Notes: a model not told the origin generated them from the letters alone. Shown: positions 1 through 51,651, counted from the stretch's first letter. The stretch is 64,000 bases of DNA from an uncultured Gammaproteobacteria bacterium (GCA_964538435.1 CAZIDX010000007.1:4399-68398); one strand, 5' to 3'. Translations and numbers: made by a program.

Positions 1-1213
1 TGGTCTTCAGGCCGCTGAACACGGCGTGATTCCAGTCGATGTCCGCGATCTCGATGTCGAAGTCGCTGCTCGCGAGCCTCATGGCCTGGGCCACGGCGTT
101 GGAACGCTCCACGAAGGCAGCGAATCCGTCCGGGTTGGTCCGATCCATGAAGTTCAGGTTTCCGGCGTGCCCTACGAAGGTCGCGTCGCGGTACAGACCG
201 TCGGCGTCCTCGAAGGTGGGGTTGGCGTCGTAGTAGTCCACGGCGTACTGCATGAGGGCCATGTACTCGTCCGAGCCGGAGCCGTCGTACGCGTTCATCA
301 GGTCCTTGACCTTCTCGGCCGAGTACAGGTACGCGGCCACGAAGTTGCGGAGATCCTCGGGGTTCTGCTGCGCCCAGTCGGTGCGCACGAAGTACGAGTC
401 CGCGATGGTGCGGCGGCGATCGGCCGTGCTGGCGAGCACGTGTGCGCCGACCACGGAGCACTCGGCACCGTCGCAGGTCTGGTCCGGACCGCCGGTGAGG
501 GCGTACATGTCCGGAGTGATGACGAAGGCGCCGGCGATGTTCTCGTTGCGCTCGAAGGCCTCGACCGGTGAGCCGGGGCCGGACAGGTTGTCGACCCATT
601 CGATGTTCACGTCGGTCCACTTGAGGCCGGCGTCACCGAGGATCGCGTGCAGGAAGCCCATGTGCGGGCCACCCTTCTGGATGGCGATGGTCTTGCCGCG
701 GAGCTGGGTCAGGTCCGTGATGCCATCACGCACGATCAGGTGGTCACCGGCCGACCAGGTCATCTGGAAGACGAACTGGGGGCAGGCGCCGGGCTCGGAC
801 TGACAGAGCTCCTCGGTGTTCACGGCCACCATCACGAAGGTGCCGCGCAGGAACGGGCTCTTGCCGGACTTGTAGTCCGCGAGCTGCTGGCTCATGTCGT
901 CGCCGTTGACGATGCAGAGGTTCTGCCCGTACTCGGCGCAGATGGTGCCTTCGCGGCTCTGATCGCCGCCCGCACAGTAGTGCGTGGGGTAGTCGCCGCC
1001 CCAGGTGATGTCCGGGACCTGCGTGCACTGACCGGCCATCTTGCCCTTGCCGGGCATGCCGGAAGAGGACTTGGAGTTGCTCTTGGTGGGTGCGGTCTGG
1101 TTGCTCGTGGGAGCACCCCCGTCACTCGACGGTGGGGTCTGCTCCACACTCACGCAGCCAGCCACGAGGAAGCTGATCAGAGCCAGCATCGGCATCAGGA
1201 AACGGAGTCGCAT
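1..1213 (-). CDS. ABC-transporter substrate-binding lipoprotein (NitT/TauT/ThiY-like); C-terminus runs off window start
   Basis: ATG at 1213..1211 preceded by GGAGGA SD (rc of 1221-1226). N-terminus MRLRFLMPMLALISFLVAGC is a signal peptide plus lipobox, followed by a S/T/P-rich linker. ~65% GC with GC3 bias. Frame stays open to position 1 (checked at both ends); absent from the ORF track only because it leaves the window. Confidence 0.6.
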   Translation of the reverse strand, partial: MRLRFLMPMLALISFLVAGCVSVEQTPPSSDGGAPTSNQTAPTKSNSKSSSGMPGKGKMAGQCTQVPDITWGGDYPTHYCAGGDQSREGTICAEYGQNLCIVNGDDMSQQLADYKSGKSPFLRGTFVMVAVNTEELCQSEPGACPQFVFQMTWSAGDHLIVRDGITDLTQLRGKTIAIQKGGPHMGFLHAILGDAGLKWTDVNIEWVDNLSGPGSPVEAFERNENIAGAFVITPDMYALTGGPDQTCDGAECSVVGAHVLASTADRRRTIADSYFVRTDWAQQNPEDLRNFVAAYLYSAEKVKDLMNAYDGSGSDEYMALMQYAVDYYDANPTFEDADGLYRDATFVGHAGNLNFMDRTNPDGFAAFVERSNAVAQAMRLASSDFDIEIADIDWNHAVFSGLKT

Positions 1214-1601
1214 GGACATCCTCCTTCTCTCCCTGTCGGTGAATTTACTTCCAGGCCGTGACAGGCCAAGCCAGGAAGCATGTTCTCGGATTCGTTCCGA
1301 TTGGATCTCACCGTTGAGCGATGAGGGCGTGCAGTAGACCTAAATCCACTACGTCACGCACACGGCGAGATCCAATCGAAACAAATCTTTGAAATGAGAA
1401 TAAAAAGAGCGCCCGGTATTTGGGCGTCTTTCCAGTATTATGACCTTGCGTAACGGAAACGCCCCATTTCCGAAGGGCGCAACTTAGTCCAAGTGGCAAA
1501 ATTTGTCAAGGGGCACAAATGGACATCTGTTAGCTGAGTTTGACGAGTTCATTTTTGCCTATAAAATCAGGAGTTTTCTGTATATTTTTGGTCAGAAACT
1601 A

Positions 1602-1630
1602 TTGACAAATGTGCTTTTTTGTGCTAATAT
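1602..1630 (+). promoter_or_regulatory. sigma70-like promoter TTGACA-17-TAATAT
   Basis: TTGACA 1602-1607, 17-nt spacer, TAATAT 1625-1630 in an AT-rich divergent intergenic region; about 170-nt leader before ATG 1801. Confidence 0.5.
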
Positions 1631-1800
1631 CGCATGTTCGCTTGAGACTGCGTTAGCCGCAACTAACAAAGAATCTATGCGACCCAAGTGCCCCGCCACA
1701 GGGGCAAACATATCAACCCAAGACCTTTGCCTGCCCGCGCGATGGAATGTGCGGACCAATGCGGGTGGGTGAAAAACCTCCGCACTGCAAAGGCAACATC

Positions 1801-2358
1801 ATGTCCCCTTCCGACTTCCGCGTCGTCTCCAGCGCTCGCAAGCTCGTCCTCGTTCCCAAGATCGATGCCCCTGTGGTGTCCTTCCCGGACGGAGCCGAGA
1901 TCAACAGCTGGGGAGCCAACAACGAGACCCCCACCGTGGTGGTCTGCAACGGCACCGAGGAGACCCCGTCCTGGCAGGGTGTCGACGCCGTGACCGGCTT
2001 CGTCATCGTCAACGAGGTTCCCGAGGAGATCGCCGAAGCCGCCCTGGCCATGTACGAGTCCGGCAACTCCCTCGAGGACGTGCTGGCCTACCTGGTCGAG
2101 AACGGCTGCGTGGATCAGTACACGAGCTCGTGGAGCTTCAAGAAGACCAAGCTCTCTGTGGCCGGCACCGTCCTGAGCGACAAGTCCGGCATCTACAAGC
2201 GTGACGACCGTGACCTGATCGCCTGCTGGCGTGAGGGTGACACCTTCTTCACCGCCCCGAGTGGTGAAGGTCGGGTCATCGAGCCCGGCATCCTGCAGCG
2301 GACCTACCGCCTGCCGGACGGAAGTCAGATCGATCTCGATCAGGTTCCCGAGAAGTAG
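1801..2358 (+). CDS. hypothetical protein (high-GC island gene)
   Basis: 185-aa ORF with ordinary composition and GC3 bias. Antisense ORF 1675..2523 is Gly/Arg-rich reverse-frame junk. First ATG at 1801 (the ORF opens at 1747 with an alternative start codon). Confidence 0.5.
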   Translation: MSPSDFRVVSSARKLVLVPKIDAPVVSFPDGAEINSWGANNETPTVVVCNGTEETPSWQGVDAVTGFVIVNEVPEEIAEAALAMYESGNSLEDVLAYLVENGCVDQYTSSWSFKKTKLSVAGTVLSDKSGIYKRDDRDLIACWREGDTFFTAPSGEGRVIEPGILQRTYRLPDGSQIDLDQVPEK

Positions 2359-2595
2359 AACTAGCTCTTCATCACCCCCGGGTGGTAGAAGGGCATGGGA
2401 TCCAACCCTTGTGTGTAACAGTGACCCCTGTGGTCTCTGGAATGCGCTAGGAGTGGTTCCATGGAATGCAACGCTGCGGCTGAGCATTCCTGAGAAGCGT
2501 CTGCGGACGTGACTCAACCCCACTACGGCCCAGGGGTAAAAGGGCAGCGACCACCGGTTAGCGCAGTTGCGGATGCGCGCCGGTGGTTTTGTTTT

Positions 2596-2624
2596 TAAAA
2601 CAGACGCGCTTGACGTCTGTTTGT
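2596..2624 (-). terminator. rho-independent terminator at GC-content junction
   Basis: Inverted repeat AAACAGACG-N7-CGTCTGTTT (2598-2622) flanked by A/T runs, immediately after the stop (2625-2627) of the 997-aa gene. Confidence 0.5.
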
Positions 2625-6537: not shown

Positions 6538-6563
6538 TATTCTGATTCAAACTCAGAGCCCTC

Positions 6564-6594
6564 TAAGGGGCCGGGTCGTTACTTGTAGCATTGC
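6564..6594 (+). repeat. left 31-bp terminal inverted repeat
   Basis: Exact reverse-complement match to 7443-7473. Confidence 0.8.
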
Positions 6595-6597
6595 TTT

Positions 6598-7458: not shown

Positions 7459-7473
7459 CGACCCGGCCCCTTA
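7443..7473 (-). repeat. right 31-bp terminal inverted repeat (followed by partial duplicate GGCCCCTTAG 7475-7487)
   Basis: Exact reverse-complement match to 6564-6594. Confidence 0.8.
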
Positions 7474-7532
7474 GCGGCCCCTTAGTGTGATTGGAACAAC
7501 TTAGTTGCGAAACGAGATTGGAAAACGTATGA

Positions 7533-10132: not shown

Positions 10133-10217
10133 AGTAAACCGATTTTACCATAGATTGACAAAGTGGCGTTTTGGAGATAAGGTTTGATATCCTCAACAAA
10201 AGGAAATGGGAGGTATC

Positions 10218-10913
10218 ATGCGAGGAATCCCTCTTGCACCGCATATGAGTCCTGGCGACCTGTGCATCATCACTGTGACCACCAGAAGCAGCTGCGACTC
10301 TCTGGGTCGCATCGGCCCCGAGGACTTTGTGGGCGAGTTCAAGGGTGTGGTCGAGGCCGTGGACTACGACAACCGCAGGATCAAGGCCAAGTTCACTGAC
10401 CCGCGCCTGACCAAGAACAGAGATCTGGCTATTCGTCGGTTCGACGACAAGGAGCCGCCGTACGAGTACAGGGTTCGCCCGCGTTACCGAATCCAAGGCT
10501 TGTCCATGCAGACCGGGTTCGAGCTCGGTCAACGCTGCGTGGTGCAGATCGGTCACTTCGACGAGAACCCGAGACTGTGTGAGAACCCGGGCATGACCCC
10601 AGAAGAAGTCCTCGAGTGCTTCCCGATCGAGATGGTCGGCCTGTGGGAAGCGAAGATCATCTTCGCCAGCACCAAAGGTGTTGACATGGATGGCACGATC
10701 TACTACCCGGTGGCCGTGCTCCTGGTCGATGACCGTCTGGCAAATCACGAGAACGAAGAGGTTCGGCACTGGCATGGACTGGAGCCTCCGGTGCGCTACA
10801 ACGTGTACCGCGTGAACGAACACATCATCGACGGAGCCCAGCAGGTGATGCGTGTTTGGGAGACCGCACGTGATGCACTGATGGACTCCTGGTCCACGCT
10901 CCAGAAGGGCTGA
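10218..10913 (+). CDS. hypothetical protein (high-GC island, first of four)
   Basis: GGGAGG SD 4 nt before ATG 10218. Ordinary composition; antisense ORF 10107..10952 is junk-like. Upstream TTGACA (10164-10169)-17-TAAGGT. Confidence 0.55.
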   Translation: MRGIPLAPHMSPGDLCIITVTTRSSCDSLGRIGPEDFVGEFKGVVEAVDYDNRRIKAKFTDPRLTKNRDLAIRRFDDKEPPYEYRVRPRYRIQGLSMQTGFELGQRCVVQIGHFDENPRLCENPGMTPEEVLECFPIEMVGLWEAKIIFASTKGVDMDGTIYYPVAVLLVDDRLANHENEEVRHWHGLEPPVRYNVYRVNEHIIDGAQQVMRVWETARDALMDSWSTLQKG

Positions 10914-10975
10914 GCAGACTGAGCAAACGCTCGACGAAGCGCTAAGCAGCAATGCTGGCGCTTTTCTAATTGTGT

Positions 10976-11079: not shown

Positions 11080-11086
11080 GTGAATA

Positions 11087-11117
11087 GAAAACAGGACCCT
11101 AGGGTCCTGCGTTTTTG
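11087..11117. terminator. bidirectional terminator with perfect 18-bp palindrome CAGGACCCTAGGGTCCTG
   Basis: Palindrome 11092-11109 embeds the TAG stop of the minus-strand gene; T-runs on both sides. Confidence 0.6.
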
Positions 11118-11620
11118 TCGTTACCTCCCTTTCCTCGCCCAAGGGCGATTCCGGCAAGGCTGGCGATGTGGTCGAGCAGCCACTTGCGTTTTCCGATCGA
11201 GCTCTTGCTGATTGCTGTGCACACGTAGAGCAGAGCAACCTTGAGCGCAGTGTCTGTGGCCAGAGCCATAACCTCTTCCTGTGCAGTTGTAGCACCTGCC
11301 TTGAGAAATGCCTCAGGTACTCCCATGGAGAACGGGAGTGTCAGGAAGAGAAGTAGGTAGATCTCACCGTGCGTGATGAAGCGCCAGATGTAGCTTCCGC
11401 TCTGATGGTCTCCAACCCAGCGGCTAACCTCGCGCGCACCCACAAAGATTGTGAGGGCGTAGAACCAGTAGTCTACGAGCTGCTTTCCCACACTGACGTG
11501 CGTTGGGAGCCAGTAACTGGCTGCGATCAGGCTGATCACGATAACGGTACAGATGTCGAAGACGAGCTTCCAGGCGAACAGCTTCCGAAACACGAAGCTG
11601 ACACGTTCTTTTCCAGTCAT
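11099..11620 (-). CDS. hypothetical integral membrane protein (high-GC island)
   Basis: Start chosen at ATG 11620 (MTGKERV) preceded by GGAGGTG SD (the track ORF opens with an alternative start codon at 11647). 4-5 predicted TM helices. Confidence 0.5.
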   Translation of the reverse strand: MTGKERVSFVFRKLFAWKLVFDICTVIVISLIAASYWLPTHVSVGKQLVDYWFYALTIFVGAREVSRWVGDHQSGSYIWRFITHGEIYLLLFLTLPFSMGVPEAFLKAGATTAQEEVMALATDTALKVALLYVCTAISKSSIGKRKWLLDHIASLAGIALGRGKGGNDKNAGP

Positions 11621-11725
11621 TGTCACCTCCGCATTGGAACTGGACAAAAAACCTTAGCAACGCAGCTGATTTGCGTCAAGGTATTGAAATACCACGCCCG
11701 GGGGCGTGGTTCGTGGCAGTTGCTG

Positions 11726-12352
11726 CTAGCGCAAGAGCTGTGGGAGCGCAATGGCAGCCAGGATACCGATGATCGAGATGACGATCATGACCTCCACCAT
11801 TGTCGTGCTCTTGAGGATCTTCCTCTTGTTCACGAGGATGAAGCCTGCCGGAAGAAGCAGGGACAGGAGCAGTCCGAAGACCACGATCCGCTGATGCGGG
11901 AACAGAGCCACCATGGTCGGCAATGTGACACGTTCGTCACCATCGACCAGCACCTTGCGCACCTGCAGCAGAGCCAGGTCTCGATCTCCGCTGCTCATCT
12001 CTGCCGCAATGGCTTCATCTGCCTCGAGCTTGGCGCCTACGATGTTCTCGTACCAGTACCCGACGTCGTTACTGCCGCGCTCGAAGAACACGTTCGAGTG
12101 ACCGTAGTTAATCTCGTGTTCGTCCAGATACTCGATCGCGAGCCCCACCTTCTCACTGGCGCGCTCCAGGTTGGAGGCATCGGCAGCGAGCTTGAGGTTG
12201 TCGGTCACGTTGATGGAGAACAGGAGCGAAACCACGACCGCGTAGGCAGCGATCAGAAGCGCAGGCAGCAACGTGAACCCTGTACCTACCAGTATTGTGT
12301 TCCTATTGCTGCGCTCGAGCCTTTCTCTGTCACGTCCGGTAGGGATTGCCAT
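11726..12352 (-). CDS. hypothetical membrane protein (N-terminal TM, extracytoplasmic domain, two C-terminal TM helices)
   Basis: Antisense ORF 11369..12382 is His/Cys/Arg-rich junk. Directly follows the stop of 12363..13067 (operon). Perfect 20-bp palindrome ACCACGCCCGGGGGCGTGGT (11693-11712) downstream. Confidence 0.5.
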   Translation of the reverse strand: MAIPTGRDRERLERSNRNTILVGTGFTLLPALLIAAYAVVVSLLFSINVTDNLKLAADASNLERASEKVGLAIEYLDEHEINYGHSNVFFERGSNDVGYWYENIVGAKLEADEAIAAEMSSGDRDLALLQVRKVLVDGDERVTLPTMVALFPHQRIVVFGLLLSLLLPAGFILVNKRKILKSTTMVEVMIVISIIGILAAIALPQLLR

Positions 12353-12362
12353 GTTGTCTCCG

Positions 12363-13067
12363 TTACTCCGTGTGGATCTTGACGGTGTCGTTCATGGGGA
12401 AGAGACGAAAGCGTTCACCACTCTCATTCTCCATGATGAAGTAGTTGCCGGACTCGATGAGCTCCTGGATTCGAGCGTTCTCGTGATCCTTGAGTTGTGC
12501 TTCCACCTGCTCGCTCTCTTGTTCGCGCGGCTCTGCCAGATACTGCTGCTGGTCAGCGATGAGATCCCTGCGAACCTGCTTGGCTCGATACGGGTCAGAC
12601 AGCTCGCTTGCAAAGCCCAGAGCGCGGCTGTAAGCCTCATCTGTGCGCTCGCAACGCATGCGCCAGATCATCATCTCCTGGACGAACAAGTCGTGCTTGG
12701 ACTCGTCGATCTCCTGACACTGGGCCACGTAGGCCTCGAACCAGTCGGCGCCGAGGTAGCTGCCGTCATCTCGGACCTTGCAGTCGCGGGCCTTTTGCAG
12801 ATGCTCGCGCTTGAGACCTGAATAATGGAAGCAATTCACAGACCTCCACGCGATGATGATCGGCTCCTCGGTTTCAGGTGCACTCACCTTGACCTCGGCA
12901 GCCTGAGCCACGGTGTCCATGGACTCATCCGTGACCATAACGAATCCGATCACGACCCCGAACAGGACCAGACCGAACAGCGCCAGGTAAATCACGCCTG
13001 ATGGGAACGTGACGGGCTTGAGCTGATCGCGAATGCGCTTGCTCACGACCTTTGTTCGCTTGTTCAT
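12363..13067 (-). CDS. hypothetical single-pass membrane protein (high-GC island)
   Basis: GGAGGGGAG SD before ATG 13067; one N-terminal TM helix then a charged soluble domain. Confidence 0.5.
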   Translation of the reverse strand: MNKRTKVVSKRIRDQLKPVTFPSGVIYLALFGLVLFGVVIGFVMVTDESMDTVAQAAEVKVSAPETEEPIIIAWRSVNCFHYSGLKREHLQKARDCKVRDDGSYLGADWFEAYVAQCQEIDESKHDLFVQEMMIWRMRCERTDEAYSRALGFASELSDPYRAKQVRRDLIADQQQYLAEPREQESEQVEAQLKDHENARIQELIESGNYFIMENESGERFRLFPMNDTVKIHTE

Positions 13068-13756: not shown

Positions 13757-14329
13757 TCACCCTAGGGGCGAGGTTCGTTGCCACAGGTCCACCAGCTCAT
13801 CAGCTAGGGCCTGTGTTTTTGTGTCTGCGACCGTGAGTCTACGCTCAAGGTCGTGAAGCACGTGTGTGCAGCAACTGGGAACGGGCTGTGTGCAGCCATT
13901 GATCTTGGTCTGCACTCTCCAGTCGATGCGGATGCCAGCGTCTTGGAATGCTTGCTCCCACTGAGAAAGCTCGTCAAAGCTCTTCCCAACGTACATGGCA
14001 TGTGTGCCACACGACATCATGACGTGCAGGTGCGGATTGTGAATGTTGCCAGGAAGATCACCCAAAACGATCTGAGCACTGTCAGCCAAGTAAGCCTGAA
14101 CAGCAGCCTCAACCTCTGGTAGACCAGCGTGCCACTGCTTTTGTCGCGCGCTCCAGGGCTTGAGCCCAAGAAGAGGGCCGTGGGTATCCGAGTAGACATC
14201 GATCTCGTGGAGACCAACACGCACATCAGAGCGGGCCTGGAGAAGCCTGTAGAGCGTGGTGCAGAGCGTGGACTTCCCGCTGTTAGCAGGACCACCGACA
14301 AGGAGACGAATCTGGTGAGGTGCGCTCAC
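13757..14329 (-). CDS. P-loop NTPase / small kinase-like protein
   Basis: Walker A LLVGGPANSGKST and Walker B-like IVLGDLPG. GTG start overlaps the Fic stop (GTGA) with GAGGTGA SD inside the Fic 3' end. ~57% GC. Confidence 0.55.
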   Translation of the reverse strand: MSAPHQIRLLVGGPANSGKSTLCTTLYRLLQARSDVRVGLHEIDVYSDTHGPLLGLKPWSARQKQWHAGLPEVEAAVQAYLADSAQIVLGDLPGNIHNPHLHVMMSCGTHAMYVGKSFDELSQWEQAFQDAGIRIDWRVQTKINGCTQPVPSCCTHVLHDLERRLTVADTKTQALADELVDLWQRTSPLG

Positions 14330-14940
14330 TGATCACCTCGCAATGCCCGGTAGTAGGCCTGAAAGACCTCGAGGCTCTGGTTCATGCGCTCGTAGTAGCT
14401 CCTGCGGTCTGCATAGATAGTGAGGGGCGCTCCTGCCTTGAGACAGGCCAGCGCGCTCCAGAATTTGGTCATGCGACCACAACCATCTGAGTATGGGTGA
14501 ATGCGGAAGTCGAGCTCGTACTCGAGTATTGCCAGGAATTCTGTGACTTGATCTTGTGTCAGTCCGGCCAGGCCAGACGCAAGCCACTTGAACCACACAC
14601 CCATTTCGATATCGATCCTACCAATGGGCACTCCATAGGCCTTGCCTGTGTCATGCTGGCGATACATGGAGCTGGTTTGGGTTCCTGATGTTACGGATGC
14701 AAAGAGCTGGAGCTCGAGCAGGCGCAGGTCGCGCACGCTCAGGTCACGATCTCGGTGATCCCACAGGCGATTTGCTGCGCAGACGAGTCCGCGCATTGCA
14801 CTTTCCTGCAGGGCCTCCCCTGTTTCTTCGGCCTGAGGTTTCCCCTCTCGACCCAGTGCATTGACTGAACCTGTCTGAACCGTGCGGCTCATGCCAGAAA
14901 TGCTCCGGAGGAGCACCTGGATGAACTCAGTCTTTTCCAT
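14326..14940 (-). CDS. Fic/Doc (Fido) family protein
   Basis: Fic active-site motif HPYSDGCGRMTKF (HPFx[DE]GNGR pattern) and upstream RDLRLLELQLF helix. Overlaps the HD gene stop by 14 nt. Confidence 0.65.
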   Translation of the reverse strand: MEKTEFIQVLLRSISGMSRTVQTGSVNALGREGKPQAEETGEALQESAMRGLVCAANRLWDHRDRDLSVRDLRLLELQLFASVTSGTQTSSMYRQHDTGKAYGVPIGRIDIEMGVWFKWLASGLAGLTQDQVTEFLAILEYELDFRIHPYSDGCGRMTKFWSALACLKAGAPLTIYADRRSYYERMNQSLEVFQAYYRALRGDQ

Positions 14941-15574: not shown

Positions 15575-18500
15575 CTAGCTACATCCGCTTGTTGCACCGC
15601 AGTTTAGGCACTTATAGCAAGCTGCGTTGCGAACCATGATTGAGCCACAGGTGTCACAGGCAGGGGCGTCTGATTGATTATCAAACGTTTGCGTGTGCTT
15701 TGAGTCCTTCTCTTCTTTTGCGTCAAAGAGCTTTGTTTGTACTTCATCTGTCTGCTCTTCTTCTTCCTCATCTTTTTTCACAAGTTCAGCCACGTCTTCA
15801 TCTGCAACAGGTGCGACGGTCTCGCTGAGCTGGGCCGTGTTGATCCCAACAGCCACCTGACTCTCTTGAGGAAGGAACTTGATTGCAAGCCAACGGAAGA
15901 TGTAGTCCGTGATGGACTTGGCGATTCTGATTTGAGGATTGTTTGTGTAGCCTGATGGCTCAAAACGCATGTGAACAAACTTGTTCACGAGAACCTCCAG
16001 TGGCACCCCGTACTGAAGGCCGATTGAGATGGCTGTGGCAAAACTATCCATGAGCCCGCTAATCACAGACCCTTCCTTTGACATGGTAATGAAGATTTCC
16101 CCAGGAGTTCCGTCGTTGTAGAGCCCAACCGTGATGTATCCCTGATGGTTTCCTACGGCAAACTTATGCGTAACAGCCCTGCGCTCGTCTGGAAGCCGGC
16201 GGCGACGCGGTTTGCTTGATGAATCGACTTTTACGGTTTGGACAATCTGTTTTTCTGCTTCTTTAATTTCTGCTTTTTCTTCTTCTACGTTCTGCTTCTT
16301 TGCATCTGATTCTTTTGAAGTTGTGAGTGCCTGCTGGCGCTTTGATCCATCACGGTAGATGGCAATGGCCTTGAGTCCCATCTTCCATCCCTGCATGTAA
16401 ACATCGGCAATATCTTCTTTTGTTGCCTCATGTGGCATGTTCACAGTCTTTGAGATGGCACCTGAGATGAAAGGTTGGACAGCGGCCATCATGCGGATGT
16501 GGCCCATGTAATGAATGGTGCGTGTTCCGTTTGCAGCTTTAAATGCGCAATCAAATACGGCCAAATGCTCAGGTTTGATGTGAGGAGCGCCTTCAATAGT
16601 ATCTTTTTCTTCGATAAAGTCCTGAATCTCTTTTCGCTCAGACCCAGTGTAGCCAAGGCGTGTGAGGGCTTCTTCCACGGTTCCATTCACCATCTTGAGC
16701 ATTCCACCTCCAACAAGCCATTTGTACTTTACAAGAGCGATATCAGGCTCAACACCAGTGGTGTCGCAATCCATGAGGAAAGAGATGGTTCCGGTTGGAG
16801 CGAGTACGGAGATCTGTGCATTGCGGAGCCCGTGACTACTTGCATGTTCAACGGTGTTGTCCCAGCACTTGCGCGCTTCTGTGAGCAAGTCGGCTGGCAC
16901 TCCTTCTTCTTTGATCTTGTAAGACTCGTCGCGGTGCATGCGCATGACTTCCATGGCTGGTTCTTCGTTTGCTTTGTATCCAGCAAAGGCTCCGCGCTTT
17001 TCTGCGATTTTTGATGACTGGAAATAGCAGTGACCGCTCTGGAGTGAGGTGATAGCAGCGGCTAAGTTGCGTCCTTCGTCTGAATCGTAAGGGAGCCCGC
17101 GGCTCATAAGGAGCGCACCGAGGTTTGCGTAGCCGATTCCAAGAGGTCGGTAGTCAAGACTGTTCTGCTCAATGGCTGGAGTTGGATAAACCGAGCTTCC
17201 TACAATAATCTCCTGCGCTGTGATAATGATTTCGTTTGCTTTTTTGAATGCCTCTGTATCAAATACCATGCGTCCGTTTTCCTCCTTTCGGAACTTCATG
17301 AGGTTGAGAGACGCCAGGTTGCATGCACTGTCATTGATAAACATGTACTCAGAGCATGGGTTTGAGGCAAAAATGCGATCTGTGTTCTTGCAGGTGTGCC
17401 ACTTGTTAATAGTGGTGTCGTACTGGATTCCTGGATCTCCACACTGCCACGCAGCATCTGTCATAAGATCCATGAGATCCTGTGCCTTCCAGGTTTGAAT
17501 GGTCTCGCCCGTTGTCACTGCCTTTGTGTCCCAGTTTTCTCCTTTTTCAACCGCACTCATGAACTCATCGTTTACACGCACTGAGTTGTTTGCATTTTGG
17601 AAATAGATTGATCCATAAGCTGGGCCGTCGATTGATCCGTCATACCCGGCATCCATGAGCGCCCAAGCCTTTTTCTCTTCTTCAACTTTGCAAGTAATAA
17701 ATTGATCAATGTCAGGGTGTCCAACATCCAAAATCACCATTTTTGCGGCACGACGTGTTTTCCCTCCTGATTTGATGACTCCAGCAAATGCATCCAGTCC
17801 TTTCATGAACGACACAGGTCCTGAAGCTTTTCCGTTGCTTCCTCCAAGATACTCGTGGCGGGAACGGAGCTTTGAAAGACTTGAACCAGCACCAGACCCA
17901 CCCTTAAAGAGCATGCCCTCTGTGACACAGAGGTTCAGGATTGAGCGCATGTCATCCTCAACTGAGTTGATGAAGCAGGCAGAGCATTGCTGTGGTCGCG
18001 GTGTTCCCACATTAAACCAAACCGGCGAGTTAAATGCTGCCATTTGGTTTACGAGAATGTAATGAAGCTCATCCTCGAAGGTTTGTGCGTCTTCTTTTGT
18101 TTGAAAATAACTTCCCTTCCGCCCCCAGTCAGAAATAGTTGTTGCCACTCGCCCAACAAGCTGCTTTACAGAAGTCTCCCGATCTTCCTTTCCAATAGTT
18201 CCGTAAAAGTATTTTGAAACAACAATGTTTGTTGCTGTCTGAGACCAACTCTTTGGCATCTCTACATCCTTTTGCTCAAACACCAAGTTGCCTTTATGGT
18301 CCATGATGGTGGCATCGCGTTTTTCCCATTCGATCTCGTCGTATGGATGCACGTCCTTTTTTGTGAAGTAGCGTTTTACATCGATTCCTTTTCCGTACTG
18401 TTCCTTTTTGTCATTCACACGCTCCTCATTGCGGAACTGTGAGTAACGCTTTGCCACATGGACGAGGTTGGCGTCAATTAAAACAAGACCAACAACTTCA

Positions 18501-18781
18501 CGAACGTCAGCAAATGATGGGTTGCTGTGTCCGTTGAATTGTTTGGTCAATCGGGTGATTACCTGTCCGGTAACACGATCCGCCAACTGTTTTTCTTTCA
18601 TGCCAGCTGAAACAAGAGCGCTCTTTAGCGAAGCATGAAGCTTTTTACTATCAAAATCTTGTTCGTCACCACTACGTTTACGTATACATTTTACTGAAGT
18701 CATAAACTCCAATACAGCATCTGAAATATTAGCAGTGTCCGTTTTTTTCTCACGAACCTGTTTGGTGGTGGTGTCCGACAT
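15575..18781 (-). CDS. nrdJ: adenosylcobalamin-dependent (class II) ribonucleotide reductase with N-terminal ATP-cone and C-terminal Zn-ribbon
   Basis: 1068 aa. ATP-cone at the N-terminus, RNR catalytic core (NPCSE, GLMD), C-terminal CDTCG...CYKCLNCG zinc ribbon. Confidence 0.9.
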   Translation of the reverse strand: MSDTTTKQVREKKTDTANISDAVLEFMTSVKCIRKRSGDEQDFDSKKLHASLKSALVSAGMKEKQLADRVTGQVITRLTKQFNGHSNPSFADVREVVGLVLIDANLVHVAKRYSQFRNEERVNDKKEQYGKGIDVKRYFTKKDVHPYDEIEWEKRDATIMDHKGNLVFEQKDVEMPKSWSQTATNIVVSKYFYGTIGKEDRETSVKQLVGRVATTISDWGRKGSYFQTKEDAQTFEDELHYILVNQMAAFNSPVWFNVGTPRPQQCSACFINSVEDDMRSILNLCVTEGMLFKGGSGAGSSLSKLRSRHEYLGGSNGKASGPVSFMKGLDAFAGVIKSGGKTRRAAKMVILDVGHPDIDQFITCKVEEEKKAWALMDAGYDGSIDGPAYGSIYFQNANNSVRVNDEFMSAVEKGENWDTKAVTTGETIQTWKAQDLMDLMTDAAWQCGDPGIQYDTTINKWHTCKNTDRIFASNPCSEYMFINDSACNLASLNLMKFRKEENGRMVFDTEAFKKANEIIITAQEIIVGSSVYPTPAIEQNSLDYRPLGIGYANLGALLMSRGLPYDSDEGRNLAAAITSLQSGHCYFQSSKIAEKRGAFAGYKANEEPAMEVMRMHRDESYKIKEEGVPADLLTEARKCWDNTVEHASSHGLRNAQISVLAPTGTISFLMDCDTTGVEPDIALVKYKWLVGGGMLKMVNGTVEEALTRLGYTGSERKEIQDFIEEKDTIEGAPHIKPEHLAVFDCAFKAANGTRTIHYMGHIRMMAAVQPFISGAISKTVNMPHEATKEDIADVYMQGWKMGLKAIAIYRDGSKRQQALTTSKESDAKKQNVEEEKAEIKEAEKQIVQTVKVDSSSKPRRRRLPDERRAVTHKFAVGNHQGYITVGLYNDGTPGEIFITMSKEGSVISGLMDSFATAISIGLQYGVPLEVLVNKFVHMRFEPSGYTNNPQIRIAKSITDYIFRWLAIKFLPQESQVAVGINTAQLSETVAPVADEDVAELVKKDEEEEEQTDEVQTKLFDAKEEKDSKHTQTFDNQSDAPACDTCGSIMVRNAACYKCLNCGATSGCS

Positions 18782-26950: not shown

Positions 26951-27382
26951 CTAGGCGAACGCGATGGCTGCCATGGGGAAGCGCTGGCTGCGCCGGTAGA
27001 GCTGGGCTCGCATGACCTGAGAGCGCAGGCGCTTGCCTGAGACCGGGTCCAGGAAGTTCATCTGGCTGCCGCTGGGCACCTTGCGGGCGACCTCCAGGGC
27101 GATGGTCTCGACGGCCTCGTCGTACTGTTGCGACGGTGTGACGCTCTTCTGCGCCTGTCGGGTCATCTCGTCCCAGCGCGTGAAGTTGGTGCGCGCGGTG
27201 ACGAGAAAGTTGTAGACGAAGAGCAGATCCACAGCGTTCATGCCGCTGGTTTGGATCTCGCGAACGACATCCTGAGCCAGGCTCAGGAACTCGCTTGCGT
27301 CGATGTCTGATCGTTCGTCGTAGCGACGCATCAGGCGCGCGCAGTGCTTGGCGACCGTGGATGTGAGCTGCTGCGGTGTCAC
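26951..27382 (-). CDS. hypothetical protein (single-gene high-GC island)
   Basis: Start chosen at GTG 27382 preceded by GGGAGG SD (track ORF opens at 27418). ~62-65% GC; ordinary composition. The overlapping 197-aa ORF in another frame is Arg-rich junk. Confidence 0.45.
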   Translation of the reverse strand: MTPQQLTSTVAKHCARLMRRYDERSDIDASEFLSLAQDVVREIQTSGMNAVDLLFVYNFLVTARTNFTRWDEMTRQAQKSVTPSQQYDEAVETIALEVARKVPSGSQMNFLDPVSGKRLRSQVMRAQLYRRSQRFPMAAIAFA

Positions 27383-27553
27383 GGTTTTCCTCCCAATCGG
27401 CGCAGGGTATCTGCGCACGAGTTTTGAGACTAAAATAAAAACAAGGCGCTGTCAAGGCCTTTTTCTTACCCAGAACAAATCTGGGTAGCCGCGGACTTTA
27501 GCCTGCGTTCGGACACAAGCTAAAGCTTGCGGCTACCACACACAATGAATGGA

Positions 27554-34710: not shown

Positions 34711-35185
34711 AGTGCGTATAGGATACAGCCGGATTAAGATTGAGTCAAAACCCCTCTTATATGCACATTCGATGTCCCTATTTTCTCGTGGTTGAGATAA
34801 AAAATGAACATCGAATGTCTGTTTTTGAAAGTCAAAGGGTGGGTTTTACTTTATTTCTTGGGGGTGTTGGCCCCCTAGAACCCCAACCTACTTTCTTTGG
34901 TCGCAAAGAAAGTAGGCAAAGAAAACAGTCCCGCCCGATCTTGCTTTGCCGGGCCAGCTACCGTCTCAAGCTTGTCTTGGCTGCGGAACGGCGCCCGATT
35001 TTGTTCATGCCAACGTCTGACTTTGGTGGCAGGAACTTCTGGCCTGAGCGGTCAGCTCCTTCAAAGTCAGACGTTGAGCTGCTCCAGAATCGGTGCTAGG
35101 ACCATCCTCACCATCCTCTCAGAGGGGATCGACAAGCTTTCACCGGGCTGGCTCTGGCAGTCTCGATAGGGCGGGAGTCGATCAG

Positions 35186-35216
35186 AATTAGAAAAGACCC
35201 CTCCGAAGAAGAGTCT
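35186..35216 (-). terminator. rho-independent terminator with UUCG tetraloop
   Basis: rc AGACUCUUC-UUCG-GAGGGGUCU (9-bp stem with G-U pairs) followed by UUUUCUAAUUC. Confidence 0.55.
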
Positions 35217-35226
35217 TGCGTAGTTG

Positions 35227-35940
35227 CTAGCCGAACTGCGACCCGAAGCGGGACTCGACAGCATCGATGGCTGGTCCGAAGAGCTTGTCGAGCTGCCAAT
35301 CGATCATGCCTCCCACAGCACCATCGAGAGACAGGTCGTTGAATGCCTTTGCGCGTGCGTAGCGTTCTTCAGTCTCGAGCAACACAGACACCAGACCGCA
35401 AGAGATCGAGCAGATGATGCCACAGACCAGCGACATGACCAGTGGCGATGCCTCAGCCATGGGATTCACGATCAGGAAGATCGCAGCTCCCATTGTACCG
35501 AACACAGCCATGGACAGGCGCTTGAACATGTTGATGCTCAGCGCTACGAGAACGAGTGCCTTGACGACCACCAGAACGAACGCGCTGACGAACACTATGC
35601 AGACGAATGCTGCGAGGATCAGGAACAGGATCGCGAACCCGAAGAGCTTCAGCTTGTTGCTCCAAATGTCTCCGGCAACCCCCTTGACCATCCTGACAGG
35701 AACTTCGAGCCACTGCTTGGCCGTGACCATGTAGGGGTGAGCGACCCACTCCTCGAAGCTCATGCGTGCAGCTTGCTTGGTGGAGCGGACGAGCCCTCGG
35801 ATGTCGTAGCCGATGAGGATGAGCGGGAAGATGAGCACGAGGGTAAGCAGGTCGCTCCCCATGCTCTGGCCGATGTAGCAGCCCAGAGAGCCACCAATCA
35901 GGCCAGCGCTCATGGACTTTCCAGTTTCTCTTGTGAACAT
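35227..35940 (-). CDS. hypothetical polytopic membrane protein (single-gene high-GC island)
   Basis: AGGAGG SD before ATG 35940; multiple TM helices; antisense ORF 35224..35994 is His/Asp/Glu-rich junk. Confidence 0.5.
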   Translation of the reverse strand: MFTRETGKSMSAGLIGGSLGCYIGQSMGSDLLTLVLIFPLILIGYDIRGLVRSTKQAARMSFEEWVAHPYMVTAKQWLEVPVRMVKGVAGDIWSNKLKLFGFAILFLILAAFVCIVFVSAFVLVVVKALVLVALSINMFKRLSMAVFGTMGAAIFLIVNPMAEASPLVMSLVCGIICSISCGLVSVLLETEERYARAKAFNDLSLDGAVGGMIDWQLDKLFGPAIDAVESRFGSQFG

Positions 35941-38807: not shown

Positions 38808-40022
38808 CTAGCGGGAGCTGAGCTCTGCGCGGATGCGCTCTTGCTCGACCTTGATCTCTTGGAGCGTCGAAGCCACTGCAAGCGCGTGCTTGCGCTCGCT
38901 CATCTCGAACTTGATCTCGGTGATGTGACCACCGTAGCGCTGGTCGCTCATCTCACCCATCCAGGCAGTGCTGCCATGGAGAGTCTGGAGGCGCACCTTC
39001 CACATCCCGTCATTGCGGCGGGACTTGCGCCTGAGGTAGCGGATGACTCGCTCGAGGTCGTCAGCCAGGATACCGTTGAAGCACGGAGGTGATCCAACCC
39101 AGTCTTCGAGGCCGAGGAACACTTCGATGCGTGCATCCTGACAGACTGACATCTTCAGATCGTAGTTGAAACCAGGCCCCATCCAGCTCACACACTTTTC
39201 GAGCACGGGCTTGGATGCACGCACAGGTACTGCTCGCGGAGGCTCGATGAGCCCCTTGAGCTGCGCCTTCATCAGTGCGGCAGAGGTGAACCCGTCCGTG
39301 ATCACCCCATCGCGCACCATTTCGTAAAGCTCGGTGAGACTCAGAACCACAGGTCCGAGCACGGACTCGGAAACGTCACGCGAGATCTTGCTCTCGTCGA
39401 TGATGACGTCGGTGATCATGAGGATCTCGGGGTCCATGCCCAGCACACCCGTATCAGGGTCTGTGATGCCGAGCGGGAACATCCTGGAGGTCTTGGTCAG
39501 GATTGCTCCGACCTCCTCCTGGGCCTCGCGGATGGCGCACTCTTCCATGGCTTCGTCTGGCATGCGTGTTCCGCGCGGAAGCTCGATGGTCCAAGCGCGC
39601 TTGGCGTGCTTGTATGAGCGGACGAGAACGAATTCATTGTCCACGGTCCGCAGCAGCACTGCGGCACCGACATCCCTGCCGATGTTCCACTCGACCACTT
39701 GGTAGGTTCCGACCACGGGCGCTCCGTCTTCCTCGCGCGGAGGAAAGAGCACGGTGTAGACCGGGATGACCCAGTACGGTGTGGTGACTACGCGATGGAG
39801 TCCGATGATCTGAACTTCGCCCTCACTCCAGTCTCCCAGAGGAACACTTTCGTCTTCCAGGCTCGCGACCACACGCTCGATAGCTTCTCTTCGAGTGCTT
39901 TCGGCGTACTTGACCCGGGCGCGCCTGAGCGATCCCTTGGCCAAACTCACCCCCAGGTCAATGACCTGATACTTGTCTTCCTTTCCCATTTTGACTCGCT
40001 TTGGACCAGGCTGCACGAGCAT
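38808..40022 (-). CDS. multidomain Nudix hydrolase family protein (single-gene high-GC island)
   Basis: Nudix box GTRMPDEAMEECAIREAQEEVG. ~60% GC. Start uncertain: ATG 40022 (MLVQPG) or 39989 (MGKED). The track ORF extends artefactually to 40379 across the next gene. Confidence 0.5.
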   Translation of the reverse strand: MLVQPGPKRVKMGKEDKYQVIDLGVSLAKGSLRRARVKYAESTRREAIERVVASLEDESVPLGDWSEGEVQIIGLHRVVTTPYWVIPVYTVLFPPREEDGAPVVGTYQVVEWNIGRDVGAAVLLRTVDNEFVLVRSYKHAKRAWTIELPRGTRMPDEAMEECAIREAQEEVGAILTKTSRMFPLGITDPDTGVLGMDPEILMITDVIIDESKISRDVSESVLGPVVLSLTELYEMVRDGVITDGFTSAALMKAQLKGLIEPPRAVPVRASKPVLEKCVSWMGPGFNYDLKMSVCQDARIEVFLGLEDWVGSPPCFNGILADDLERVIRYLRRKSRRNDGMWKVRLQTLHGSTAWMGEMSDQRYGGHITEIKFEMSERKHALAVASTLQEIKVEQERIRAELSSR

Positions 40023-49677: not shown

Positions 49678-49721
49678 AAAACACCTCATTTCCTTGAGAA
49701 AGAGGTGTTTTTGTATTGACA
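49678..49721 (+). repeat. 44-bp direct repeat copy 1 (hairpin + TTGACA module)
   Basis: AAACACCTCATTTCCTTGAGAAAGAGGTGTTTTTGTATTGACA; 42/43 identical to 50971-51013. Confidence 0.75.
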
Positions 49722-49860
49722 CAACTTGGCACAAATGCTAGGTTTCATTGTCGATTCATTTCGAAAGCCCCTCAGGGGGCGCCCTGGATCTTCACGAGGA
49801 AGTGAAAGGCTTCCCTGGTATCTCTCAGGAGATGCTGCTTCAGATGATACGGAGACAGAC

Positions 49861-50913
49861 ATGTCCCCCAAAGTTCCTGAAGAACTGTCCGCTGAGCAGC
49901 AGCTCGCGATCCTTCGCGACTGGCTCATGAACCACAACCAGGCGTTCGGACATATGCGCGGCAAGCTCGGTGGATCCACCATGGATCTACTCGGCAGGCT
50001 GCTCGAGACCCGTTCGCCCTCTGCCGCTCTGGAGGCGTACAACGCTCTGGTCAGCGACATGCGCATTATGTTCAAGCACCTGGCCAAGCTACGCCGGGAT
50101 GGCCACACCGTAGCCGAAGCTGAGCTGATGCGCGCCCTGACCCAGCCGGGCTACCTGATCACGGGTGAGACTGTCCCTCTGGAGAGCACAGCACCTTACA
50201 CACTGTTCATGATCGACCCAGAGCTCACCTTCGCAACCGCGAAGTTCCTGGAAGACTGGAAAAACGTGTACCTGAACCAGTGTCCTCGTGTCCGGTGTCG
50301 GGCAGTCGTCGAGCCAGAGTTCGCTTTGGATCGCTACGGCAACCTCATCTGGGAGGTCTACCTGCGTGAGATGCGGGAAAACTATTACGACCGAATCGGT
50401 TTCCTCAACGACGACTTGCAGCGAGCTCAAACGCTCGTGTCGTATGTTCTGGAGACCTTCGGGCGAAGGCTCGAAATCTCAACCAAGCGCGTCGGCACCA
50501 AGACAACAGACTTTATCCCCATGGGGTGGAGAACGAGACAAGCCCCTCGAACCAGAGCCCAGCTCACAGCTAATCACCGGGTAGTCAACATGCTCTCCTG
50601 CGTGTTTGGAAAGCCACTGGAGCAGGGACAGGTGTTGAGTGCGTTCCCACGTGCTGAGCAGCACCGTGTGGCAACCTGGCAGTTCCACGCACCTGCAGCC
50701 ATGAACCTGAGTAGCCCCAGACGTACCTTCTACGTCGGCTTCCACCCCCGGGCGGAGCACGAGAAGTGGCAGCGTGCACGACCGCAGCTCACCAGTCGCG
50801 GCACAGCCAACGGCTGGGGTGCGATCATCATCCCCAGATCCATGCTCGACATGTACGACCGTGAAGGGCACTTCCTTTTCCACAACCGCAACCTGGATTT
50901 CCCTGAATCCTAG
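49861..50913 (+). CDS. hypothetical protein (high-GC cassette 1)
   Basis: ~65% GC ORF. Start chosen at ATG 49861 (GGAG 8 nt upstream); the ORF opens at 49726 overlapping the promoter-like module, so the true start is uncertain. Confidence 0.45.
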   Translation: MSPKVPEELSAEQQLAILRDWLMNHNQAFGHMRGKLGGSTMDLLGRLLETRSPSAALEAYNALVSDMRIMFKHLAKLRRDGHTVAEAELMRALTQPGYLITGETVPLESTAPYTLFMIDPELTFATAKFLEDWKNVYLNQCPRVRCRAVVEPEFALDRYGNLIWEVYLREMRENYYDRIGFLNDDLQRAQTLVSYVLETFGRRLEISTKRVGTKTTDFIPMGWRTRQAPRTRAQLTANHRVVNMLSCVFGKPLEQGQVLSAFPRAEQHRVATWQFHAPAAMNLSSPRRTFYVGFHPRAEHEKWQRARPQLTSRGTANGWGAIIIPRSMLDMYDREGHFLFHNRNLDFPES

Positions 50914-50927
50914 ATTGCACCACGAAC

Positions 50928-50968
50928 GCCCCTGTTGGTTCACACCGGCCGGGGCGCTTTCTATTTCT
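50928..50968 (+). terminator. GC-rich hairpin terminator
   Basis: CGCCCC-N18-GGGGCG followed by CTTTCTATTTC; near-copy of the terminator at 51580-51618. Confidence 0.55.
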
Positions 50969-50970
50969 AG

Positions 50971-51013
50971 AAACACCTCGTTTCCTTGAGAAAGAGGTGT
51001 TTTTGTATTGACA
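50971..51013 (+). repeat. 44-bp direct repeat copy 2 (hairpin + TTGACA module)
   Basis: AAACACCTCGTTTCCTTGAGAAAGAGGTGTTTTTGTATTGACA, followed by a 16-nt spacer and TAAGGT. Confidence 0.75.
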
Positions 51014-51088
51014 AATCCTTAAAAAGGTGTAAGGTGGCTTCTTGTCGAATACCCCCCTACGGTAGGGAAAGCCGAATAGAATGTAGAG

Positions 51089-51562
51089 ATGCTAGGACGA
51101 GTTATGATCACCCTCAAAGTGACCATTGGCGACCACCTCGAACAGGTGCTCAGGGTTTCCGACAATGACCCTGACGCCGAGATCTTGATCGACGCAGCGC
51201 TCGACAGCAAGTGCGTCATGACCCTGACGGTCCCGCAAGAGCCCGAGTGCGCTGCTGCTCTTGGTCGTTTGGTGTTTGGCCAGGATCTGCCCACGGACAA
51301 GGTGGTGCTCACGGACAAGATCACGGAGCTGTCCAAGACCACAGACAAACTCGGGCTCAAGACCACGGTTCACACGACCCTGACGCGGACTGACAAGCTC
51401 CGCTACATCTGGCAGGTCGTGGAGAAGAGCGAAGCTGACCTGGTCAAGTACTCGGCGTTTGGTCAGGGATCGTTGAAGGCGGTCAAACAAGCCTTGGCCG
51501 AGCTCGGTCTGCATCTGGGTATGGACCTGTCCGAGATCAAGGACCAGCTTCCTCAGCCCTAG
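51089..51562 (+). CDS. hypothetical protein (high-GC cassette 2)
   Basis: 157 aa, ~60% GC; alternative start ATG 51104. Confidence 0.45.
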   Translation: MLGRVMITLKVTIGDHLEQVLRVSDNDPDAEILIDAALDSKCVMTLTVPQEPECAAALGRLVFGQDLPTDKVVLTDKITELSKTTDKLGLKTTVHTTLTRTDKLRYIWQVVEKSEADLVKYSAFGQGSLKAVKQALAELGLHLGMDLSEIKDQLPQP

Positions 51563-51579
51563 GGCACACAAGCACGCGA

Positions 51580-51618
51580 CGCCCCGTCGGTATCACCGGC
51601 CGGGGCGTTTCTTATTTT
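51580..51618 (+). terminator. GC-rich hairpin terminator
   Basis: CGCCCCG-N14-CGGGGCG followed by TTTCTTATTTT. Confidence 0.6.
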
Positions 51619-51651
51619 GAATCAAAAAACCAGCGCATGGCTGGTGTTTTG

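Follow-up and report, generated by a model that had tools for sequence, protein, structure and literature searches.

GC-rich gene islands at recurrent variable slots in a mid-GC chromosome segment of Candidatus Uhrbacteria

Introduction

Why does a chromosome of middling GC content carry, between its ordinary genes, discrete gene-sized blocks with the codon usage of a GC-rich genome? The question is raised by a stretch of 64,000 nucleotides (GCA_964538435.1, CAZIDX010000007.1:4399-68398; hereafter the window), which is a piece of the chromosome of a tiny groundwater bacterium of Candidatus Uhrbacteria (Patescibacteria, or Candidate Phyla Radiation, CPR). On balance, we favour the view that these blocks, referred to here as islands, are horizontally acquired gene-sized units of mixed ages, which would have come from a GC-rich pool that uses Shine-Dalgarno (SD) sequences and would have entered at recurrent variable slots. 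CPR bacteria are thought to be host-dependent and reliant on DNA uptake, and their routes of gene gain are poorly known.

The assignment to Uhrbacteria is based on nrdJ, the class II ribonucleotide reductase gene that serves as the backbone anchor, which shares 73-81% identity with its counterparts in about 25 genomes titled Candidatus Uhrbacteria, and on the synteny of more than 15 genes around it with Uhrbacteria genomes. The same evidence bears out an earlier reading of the DNA (the original prediction), which had supposed a small-genome, epibiont-like lineage. The Pfam content of the window is that of ordinary cellular genes (ribonucleotide reductase, dihydrolipoamide dehydrogenase-like protein, CobA-Nudix, sugar-nucleotide enzymes, glycosyltransferases, ABC-2 transporter and proteases). 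More than 30 related loci, designated by L-numbers, were compared with the window; the closest relative, L081, was found by a metagenome scan with an RmlB-like gene, and its backbone proteins are mostly 76-95% identical to those of the window (two at 49-70%), with a backbone synonymous divergence (dS) of 0.9-1.6.

Composition of the GC-rich genes

A 500-bp GC profile in combination with corrected reading frames defined a GC-rich set of 13 genes in nine blocks, amounting to 9,531 nt or 14.9% of the window (Table 1), the mean GC of which is 0.493 in the same profile. Since the longest open reading frames (ORFs) within the islands proved to be mostly antisense shadows of genes rich in GC at third codon positions (GC3), with GC at first positions (GC1) of 0.7-0.9, they were rejected as genes and frames were set by translation, GC3 and homology instead of by a greedy choice of the longest ORF. 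The 13 island genes have a GC of 0.55-0.65 and a GC3 of 0.62-0.91 (mean 0.75), compared with 0.38-0.52 (mean 0.468, sd 0.031) and 0.32-0.60 (mean 0.49) for the 52 other genes; the difference in GC3 is highly significant (Mann-Whitney p = 3e-8) and a two-component mixture of GC3 is preferred (Bayesian information criterion −89.7 versus −78.1), with component means of 0.496 and 0.778. By interval, GC is 0.604 at 1-2600, 0.564 at 10218-13067, 0.637 at 26951-27382, 0.576 at 35227-35940, 0.598 at 38808-40022 and 0.576 at 49861-51562. The mosaic of discrete GC-rich blocks that had been predicted is confirmed by the GC profile and by the per-gene GC3, and the intervals listed for it were right, but one island, 13757-14940 (GC 0.569), had been missed. 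The accompanying hand counts of 60-68% GC hold for positions 1-1000 (0.66) and are too high elsewhere (0.56-0.64), nrdJ, put at about 55%, measures 0.476, and the islands do not all consist of complete genes, the first gene being represented by its 5' part only and running off the left end of the window.

The shift is concentrated at third positions, as GC1 and GC at second positions (GC2) are up by only ~0.04-0.05 relative to the backbone. Codon choice differs accordingly between islands and backbone (TTC 87% and 42%, AAG 88% and 46%, CCA 12% and 59%); C-ending (NNC) codons are strongly favoured in the islands, with ATC at 88% and TAC at 89% alongside TTC, and G-ending Lys, Glu and Gln codons are also raised. 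The relative synonymous codon usage (RSCU) of the islands correlates with r = 0.30 with the window's own backbone, 0.54-0.74 with high-GC Uhrbacteria (L015, 0.54) and 0.71-0.90 with unrelated high-GC bacteria; leaving out L015, the range for high-GC genomes is 0.63-0.90. The codon style of the islands is a generic high-GC one that matches any high-GC genome equally well. Across 43 Uhrbacteria backbones spanning GC3 values of 0.24-0.85, GC1 follows 0.217 × GC3 + 0.448 and GC2 follows 0.120 × GC3 + 0.330. The pooled island genes (GC1 0.610, GC2 0.417, GC3 0.759) lie on this line, which predicts a GC1 of 0.612 and a GC2 of 0.421, and thus look equilibrated in a genome of ~56-62% GC; an argument that their GC3 is too high for their GC1 and GC2, based on Muto-Osawa slopes, was dropped because of this lineage-specific fit.

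The island edges are gene-sharp. Spacers beside or between island genes have an ordinary GC of 0.49 and the 50 codons of flanking backbone genes nearest the islands have a GC3 of 0.474, so there is no GC3 gradient into the flanks. The hairpin terminators that had been said to delimit the islands are present at several edges (11091-11110, 35194-35217, 40143-40170 and 51629-51645) but not at all of them, and window-wide counts of terminator-like hairpins are only 1-2.8 sd above shuffles. GC-rich outliers make up 5-25% of the sequence in Uhrbacteria loci of mid GC, and AT-rich outliers are rare there; high-GC genomes have almost none.

Translation starts

The island genes also differ from the backbone in their start signals. 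An SD core of at least 4 nt precedes 8/13 island starts versus 8/52 backbone starts (p = 0.002), and one of at least 5 nt precedes 5/13 versus 2/52 (p = 0.003); an SD of their own, which had been predicted for the islands, is therefore found in eight of the island genes and not in the remaining five. Among the SD-led genes, g13757 has GAGGTGAT and g14326 has TAGGAGGT upstream. The contrast extends to 15 related loci, in which SD motifs were found at 11/25 GC3-rich genes versus 23/218 ordinary genes (p = 9e-5), and to the GC-rich operon of L161, where all of the genes (9/9) have an SD; the g26951 orthologues in L003, L004 and L005 have GGAG and a GTG start in common. In the backbone genes of the window, SD motifs occur at or below the chance rate, and backbone orthologues in low-, mid- and high-GC Uhrbacteria alike are without SD (0-9%). 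Generic high-GC codon usage and SD motifs, the latter lacking in the backbone, both give the island genes a foreign look.

Many operon-first backbone genes have a −10 box (TATAAT or TAAAAT) ending 7-12 nt before the ATG, in a recurrent 'CT ATG' context (for example at 10133-10162, 15506-15535, 26855-26884, 28091-28120 and 54231-54260). These backbone features suggest that the lineage may normally use leaderless or near-leaderless mRNAs. About half of the 16S rRNAs of Parcubacteria are reported to be without the anti-SD motif (Tsurumaki et al. 2022, PMC9297842); genes for 16S rRNA, EF-Tu, GroEL, DnaK, L7/L12 and RecA are not present in the window or the Uhrbacteria loci compared.

Turnover at variable slots

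Comparison with the related loci shows that islands occupy sites at which gene content varies. In L081 and some 11 further relatives, g35227 is missing and the genes on either side of it are directly adjacent; a stretch of ~55 nt homologous to the 5' end of g35227 is retained in L081, and the pattern of the indel suggests an insertion. Likewise, L081 lacks counterparts of g49861 and g51089, and an unrelated 173-aa GC-rich gene occupies the site after g47525 there. None of the relatives that cover the site at 11726-15505 has the six genes found there in the window, and no orthologue of g11726 was found in the relatives; among these, nrdJ and CobA-Nudix bound a slot with 0-8 genes. The slot between the RmlD and NTP-transferase genes is occupied by the Nudix gene in the window and in L081; L088 has a pair of AT-rich genes there and L095 a pair of unrelated GC-rich ones. 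The L088 pair (12694-15725 of that locus; GC 0.30-0.31 in a backbone of 0.47) is the only strong AT-rich outlier among ~35 Uhrbacteria loci.

Variable cargo of the opposite composition is present in the window as well. The segment 28453-29740 holds two AT-rich genes with no Pfam match (28453-29321; GC 0.38-0.40, GC3 0.32-0.34) and a glyoxalase-family gene, none of which recurs in a related locus; L004 and L005 cover the site and have the orthologues of g29752 and g27554 side by side. Accessory cargo hence exists on the AT-rich side too.

The g49861 family

The family of g49861 comprises 251 representatives and is found in different, unrelated contexts in other CPR-type genomes, its members carrying an SD in all contexts compared. 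The excess of GC3 over the host is about +0.35 in L171 and L172, about +0.1 in L168, L170 and L173 and about 0 in L174, a gradation that resembles progressive amelioration (drift towards the composition of the host), with the SD kept throughout. The AlphaFold2 model of g49861 has a mean confidence score (pLDDT) of 90.5, and fold searches gave no significant match in the PDB.

In the window, g49861 is bracketed by two direct copies of a 43-nt repeat, D6, which like the indel at g35227 can be read as a signature of insertion, and besides D6 and D14, around 49.7-51.6 kb, no repeat is common to islands. The gene is preceded by a structured leader, the stems of which pair CCUCC-like with GGAGG-like runs. 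Related leaders are found in L172, L171, L168, L174 and L170, and RNAalifold on six sequences showed compensatory changes in 7/14 pairs; there was no match in Rfam. The leader is a candidate cis-regulatory RNA that may travel with the gene and is often present in the family. A 24-nt GC-rich hairpin and T-run element is found in two copies, 88% identical, after g49861 (50943-50966) and after g51089 (51594-51617), so these genes have the same kind of terminator.

Islands shared with other Uhrbacteria

Six island families, the lipoprotein, g1747, g10206, g11099, g26951 and the Nudix protein, have positional orthologues in other Uhrbacteria, with a GC3 of 0.54-0.93 compared with 0.38-0.55 for their own backbones (0.68 in L015). 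Orthologues of g10206, all GC3-rich and 27-42% identical, lie beside CobA in L023, L003, L006, L015 and L161; those of g11099 were found in L003 (GC3 0.79, with an SD) and L006 (GC3 0.58), and that of g1747 in L023 (62% identity, GC3 0.88), where it adjoins the orthologue of g2625. The g26951 family lies between the orthologues of a YgjP-like gene and of g27554 in L003-L006, with 23-43% identity and a GC3 of 0.93 in L003, 0.86 in L004, 0.75 in L005 and 0.54 in L006; L003 and L005 are the closest pair both for the backbone and for this family. The Nudix orthologue in L081 is 68% identical at the amino acid level and has a GC3 of 0.70; its dS to the window, 1.06, equals that of its neighbours and its non-synonymous divergence (dN), 0.24, is higher than theirs, which indicates vertical descent with faster protein change. 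The GC3-rich positional orthologues and the Nudix dS together indicate that the shared families predate the window genome.

The left-end island belongs to this shared set. Its NMT1-like lipoprotein is the first gene of an operon for a solute-binding protein (SBP) with the order SBP-VWA-OmpA-...-ABC-AAA, of at least 11 kb, which runs past the left end of the window and for which L161 and L164 provide the whole-operon context. In L161, where the operon is placed a short way downstream of nrdJ-CobA, all of it is GC-rich (GC3 0.62-0.86 versus ~0.55). The best homologues of the lipoprotein, at 58-66% identity, are in the nrdJ-CobA neighbourhood of other Uhrbacteria, with a further orthologue in L019 at 42% and another in L161, and matches at 43-47% are spread across many phyla. 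Most of its top 120 matches carry no source name; the few that do are from Patescibacteria, Verrucomicrobiota, Acidobacteria, Myxococcota and Omnitrophica, and Actinobacteria are absent among them.

Origin of the islands

In the account we favour, a conserved core of syntenic, mid-GC, SD-less genes would be broken at recurrent variable slots by inserted units with high-GC codon usage at all three positions, often with their own SD, leader and terminator, and the cargo would be mostly ORFans together with some envelope and some defence-like proteins. The genes g35227, g49861 and g51089 would have been gained or exchanged after the window's lineage and its closest relative parted, whereas the Nudix gene, g26951, g10206, g11099, g1747 and the solute-binding operon would have entered before the Uhrbacteria species diverged and then have been inherited vertically. 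Composition, synteny, the presence and absence of genes, the SD contrast and the sharp edges are shown directly; it is inferred that the source would be a GC-rich, SD-using pool, such as neighbouring bacteria or an unseen CPR element, and not Actinobacteria specifically, and that either re-seeding or a directional force may maintain the high GC of the old residents. Of the original prediction, the gain of several islands relative to relatives is supported (g35227, g49861 with g51089 and the 11.7-15.5 kb block), but repeated acquisition by this genome is not, given the six families with GC3-rich Uhrbacteria orthologues, among them the Nudix gene with its neighbour-like dS; for these the closest homologues lie in the same lineage as the backbone, yet the elevation of GC3 is genuine.

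Several results weigh against acquisition as the explanation. Six families have positional orthologues in other Uhrbacteria, and the lag of GC1 and GC2 behind GC3 that marks amelioration is absent in the island pool by the lineage regression. The SD enrichment within the window is modest when compared with composition-matched shuffles (P = 0.014-0.046). Pfam scans of the window proteins found no integrase, and no att-like repeats were found at the islands except around g49861, nor a tRNA target; neither the tRNA nor the Rfam scan of the window gave a match. IMG/VR yielded no viral relatives for g49861, g35227, g11726 or the g49861 family alignment, and a phage origin was rejected on this ground, the only match being a weak one of g11726 to LR756511.1. 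No donor lineage was identified in the individual searches, which covered the lipoprotein and the g49861 family, and the ORFan island families were seen only in CPR-type contexts, on the evidence of the g49861 family. High-GC Uhrbacteria are weakened as donors, since ordinary genes there are also SD-less and their RSCU fits the islands no better than that of unrelated high-GC bacteria. The most serious difficulty is the age of the shared families. Four-fold sites of the backbone are 31-37% identical between the window and L003-L006, with full saturation at ~26%, and an F81-type model indicates that 27-39% of an initial compositional deviation is retained per lineage. A single old acquisition of the g26951 family followed by neutral decay would require an ancestral GC3 of 1.3-2.0, which is impossible; for the Nudix gene (window versus L081) the value required, ~0.88, is feasible. 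The oldest families have therefore probably been re-seeded from a GC-rich pool or held by a directional force, and plain horizontal gene transfer with amelioration cannot be the whole account of the islands.

This persistence can also be read as the mark of a compositional class that arose in place, consisting of vertically inherited genes held GC-rich by selection acting on mRNA or base content or by GC-biased gene conversion (gBGC) at loci prone to recombination, so that no foreign origin would be required; we regard this explanation as possible but doubtful. It would accommodate the positional orthologues that stay at GC3 0.54-0.93 in up to six genomes, the impossibility of neutral decay from a single acquisition for g26951 and the neighbour-like dS of the Nudix gene, as well as the observations that the lowest island GC3 is that of L006, the host with the lowest GC, and that compositional outliers are almost always GC-rich. 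Moreover, gBGC is documented in bacteria, with an R2 of ~0.09 in S. pyogenes (Lassalle et al. 2015, PMC4450053), and the heterogeneity attributed to it resembles the islands in affecting mainly third positions and in deviating only upward. However, gBGC acts on heteroduplex DNA and should spill over, whereas the island edges are gene-sharp and the flanks and spacers ordinary; the lack of a GC3 gradient in the flanks weakens it as a unifying cause. The increments of +0.25 to +0.4 in GC3 are several-fold above those reported for bacterial gBGC, a class formed in place does not predict the SD contrast or the gains and losses among close relatives, and a g49861-family member is fully host-like in L174. 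The SD enrichment and the strong preference for NNC codons could instead denote an expression class, in which the islands would be the most translated genes, with strong ribosome-binding sites and C-ending optimal codons, and the solute-binding/OmpA/ABC operon is plausible as an abundant envelope system. The rise of G-ending Lys, Glu and Gln codons and the shift of GC1 and GC2 along the genome-wide line are, however, marks of GC pressure. The genes for ATP synthase (L168), ribosomal protein S16 and HU (L173) and L19 (L174) in related CPR loci are ordinary in GC3 and lack an SD, while L168 and L173 carry GC-rich, SD-led genes and the family member of L174 keeps only the SD; backbone GC3 does not track conservation, and top expression is unlikely for Nudix, Fic and P-loop genes. 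We therefore consider the expression reading improbable.

Actinobacteria typically have high GC3 and use SD motifs, and the Ser/Thr/Pro-rich linker after the lipobox of the lipoprotein had been taken to hint at such a donor. A series of recent transfers into this genome from one high-GC donor, actinobacterial or other, is nevertheless very unlikely: the closest homologues of the lipoprotein, at 58-66%, are in syntenic Uhrbacteria operons, which argues against both this donor and a chimeric assembly, no Actinobacteria are among its named matches, most island proteins have no Pfam family, six families are common to other Uhrbacteria and the codon usage fits any high-GC genome. For the shared families the actinobacterial reading is already largely refuted. 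An assembly or binning artefact, in which high-GC contigs were joined to a mid-GC organism, might be suspected from the most extreme GC block touching the left end of the window, and from an exact look-up of g49861 that returned only Logan contigs of 1.2-1.3 kb ending near the ends of the gene. Yet the GC-rich/backbone junctions recur in independent GenBank, JGI, ENA and Logan assemblies, namely g1747/g2625 in L023, RmlD/Nudix/NTP-transferase in L081, g26951 in L003-L006 and CobA/solute-binding operon in L161 and L162, and the island edges coincide with gene ends, so that an artefact is hardly credible. The original prediction was right that the internal islands are not chimeras, and the reservation it kept for the window-start island falls with the junctions in L161/L162 and L023.

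More tentatively, Uhrbacteria and probably other Parcubacteria may possess two lasting gene 'dialects', a mid-GC, SD-less core and a GC-rich, SD-led accessory set whose composition would not decay even between positional orthologues that have diverged to saturation at silent sites. If so, either a CPR-specific GC-rich reservoir (plasmid, virus or host-derived DNA) would re-seed the same slots, or a force specific to a gene class would be tied to a second mode of translation initiation. We found no description in the searchable literature of the coupling of GC-rich codons and SD-led starts against an SD-less core, or of its persistence. The pattern is reproducible across the window and the related loci; GC3 together with the SD motif provides a simple sequence rule that separates flexible from core genes in these genomes, and conserved insertion slots are now defined for study. 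The failure of the shared families to drift to host composition is a puzzle that bears on the upkeep of bacterial base composition.

Relation to known systems

The islands are most like flexible genomic islets or hypervariable regions acquired horizontally, for which Lawrence and Ochman described compositional islands and streamlined marine bacteria show hypervariable slots. They share with these the deviant composition and codons, the recurrent slots between syntenic genes, the ORFan, envelope and defence-like cargo and the turnover among close relatives. Unlike such islets, the units in the window are of one to three genes without integrase, tRNA or att sites, they are GC-rich and not AT-rich as is usual, their start signal also differs from that of the host, and several, although old positional orthologues, still differ from the host in composition. 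Integron cassettes are likewise mostly single ORFan genes, and the position of g49861 within a hairpin-containing 43-nt direct repeat, together with the occurrence of its family in unrelated contexts with its own leader, is reminiscent of them; the islands, however, stand in both orientations and have their own promoters. No IntI integrase was found in Pfam scans of the window and no attC-like element common to the islands was seen, with no dedicated attC model run. Lineages poor in SD, of the Bacteroidetes type and among Parcubacteria (PMC9297842), also have SD-less ordinary genes and a minority with a clear SD, but here that minority is the GC-rich accessory set and not ribosomal regulators.

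Other features of the window

Most island proteins have no Pfam family. The coordinates of the islands, their anchors and associated elements are given in Table 1.

Table 1. Island genes, backbone anchors and associated elements of the window, numbered from its first nucleotide.
Feature	Coordinates	Strand	Remarks
Solute-binding lipoprotein (NMT1-like), 5' part	2..1219	-	Frame and lipobox; GC 0.654, GC3 0.909
g1747	1747..2358	+	No Pfam match; GC 0.629, GC3 0.843
CobA-Nudix	9128-10132		Fused Nudix and ATP:corrinoid adenosyltransferase; close to B12-dependent nrdJ; conserved in relatives
g10206	10206..10913	+	No Pfam match; divergent from CobA-Nudix; GC 0.592, GC3 0.758
g11099	11099..11647	-	Membrane protein; GC 0.552, GC3 0.667
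g11726	11726..12352	-	Pilin-helix-like C-terminus; GC 0.577, GC3 0.761
g12363	12363..13067	-	N-terminal transmembrane helix, no Pfam match; GC 0.572, GC3 0.753; SD-like GGAGG upstream
g13757	13757..14329	-	P-loop ATPase resembling Csx3-associated AAA (PADLOC Csx3-AAA, E = 9e-11); GC 0.572, GC3 0.618
g14326	14326..14940	-	Fic-domain protein, motif HPYSDGCGR; weak Pfam Fic, PADLOC SoFic/PDC-S04; GC 0.566, GC3 0.629
nrdJ	15575..18781	-	Class II ribonucleotide reductase, backbone anchor; GC 0.476
g26951 ('Island 4')	26951..27418	-	155 aa, no Pfam match; GC 0.635, GC3 0.840
g35227 indel, non-coding tail	34711..35226		GC 0.50; terminator-like hairpin 35194-35217
g35227	35227..35940	-	Membrane protein in divergent g33427/g36016 spacer; GC 0.576, GC3 0.761; SD CAGGAGG
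Nudix-domain protein	38808..40022	-	Pfam NUDIX, extra N- and C-terminal regions; GC 0.598, GC3 0.738
D6, copy 1 (43-nt repeat)	49679..49721	+	Terminator hairpin and TTGACA; single copy at same place in L081
Structured 5' leader of g49861 family	49767..49835	+	Hairpins 49767-49781 and 49817-49835, YCAGG loops; whole leader 49722-49860
g49861	49861..50913	+	No Pfam match; family of 251 representatives; GC 0.590, GC3 0.724
D6, copy 2 (43-nt repeat)	50971..51013	+	98% identical to copy 1
g51089	51089..51562	+	Weak match to RNA polymerase alpha C-terminal (helix-hairpin-helix) domain; GC 0.582, GC3 0.772

The HD-domain, Fic and P-loop ATPase genes at 13757-15505 form a translationally coupled three-gene unit, which the PADLOC matches suggest may be a defence or toxin-like module. 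The HD gene overlaps g14326 by 14 nt (14927-14940) and composition switches at this junction, from a GC3 of 0.48 in the HD gene to 0.62-0.63 in the Fic and ATPase genes. The last 25 residues of g11726 (11726-11810), MVEVMIVISIIGILAAIALPQLLR, resemble the N-terminal helix of type IV pilins and may be the remnant of a truncated pilin gene fused onto an unrelated ORF; residues 20-160 of the same protein have a weak match (27%, E = 6e-10) to the 595-kb uncultured huge phage LR756511.1.

The sole transposase-like gene of the window, an IS200-like Y1 transposase with a helix-turn-helix domain at 6598-7458, is not next to a GC-rich island. It is flanked by 49-nt inverted repeats (6547-6595 and 7442-7490) and is absent at this site in relatives, L023 carrying a GC-rich gene there. 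A doublet of the flanking repeat (37418-37450 and 37561-37586, arms 113 nt apart) is found in the spacer before the NTP-transferase gene, and the ensemble looks like a putative REP-associated transposase (RAYT) with its REPIN.

A 29-nt repeat family with TTCGTAnnTACGAA has two copies in the spacer between g10206 and g11099 (10970-10998 and 11044-11072) and an inverted pair in the spacer before a glycosyltransferase gene (54319-54347 and 54404-54432); it may be a small mobile repeat or a site bound by a transcription factor. Among the backbone genes, the one at 2625-5618 encodes a 997-aa protein that is conserved in relatives and has a prokaryotic SLOG domain (TRPM-type) at its C-terminus. At 57382-57563, a 58-nt unit is repeated three times in tandem (91% identity), in a spacer of GC 0.56 that separates a GIY-YIG gene (57092-57379) from a small ORF (57566-57820).

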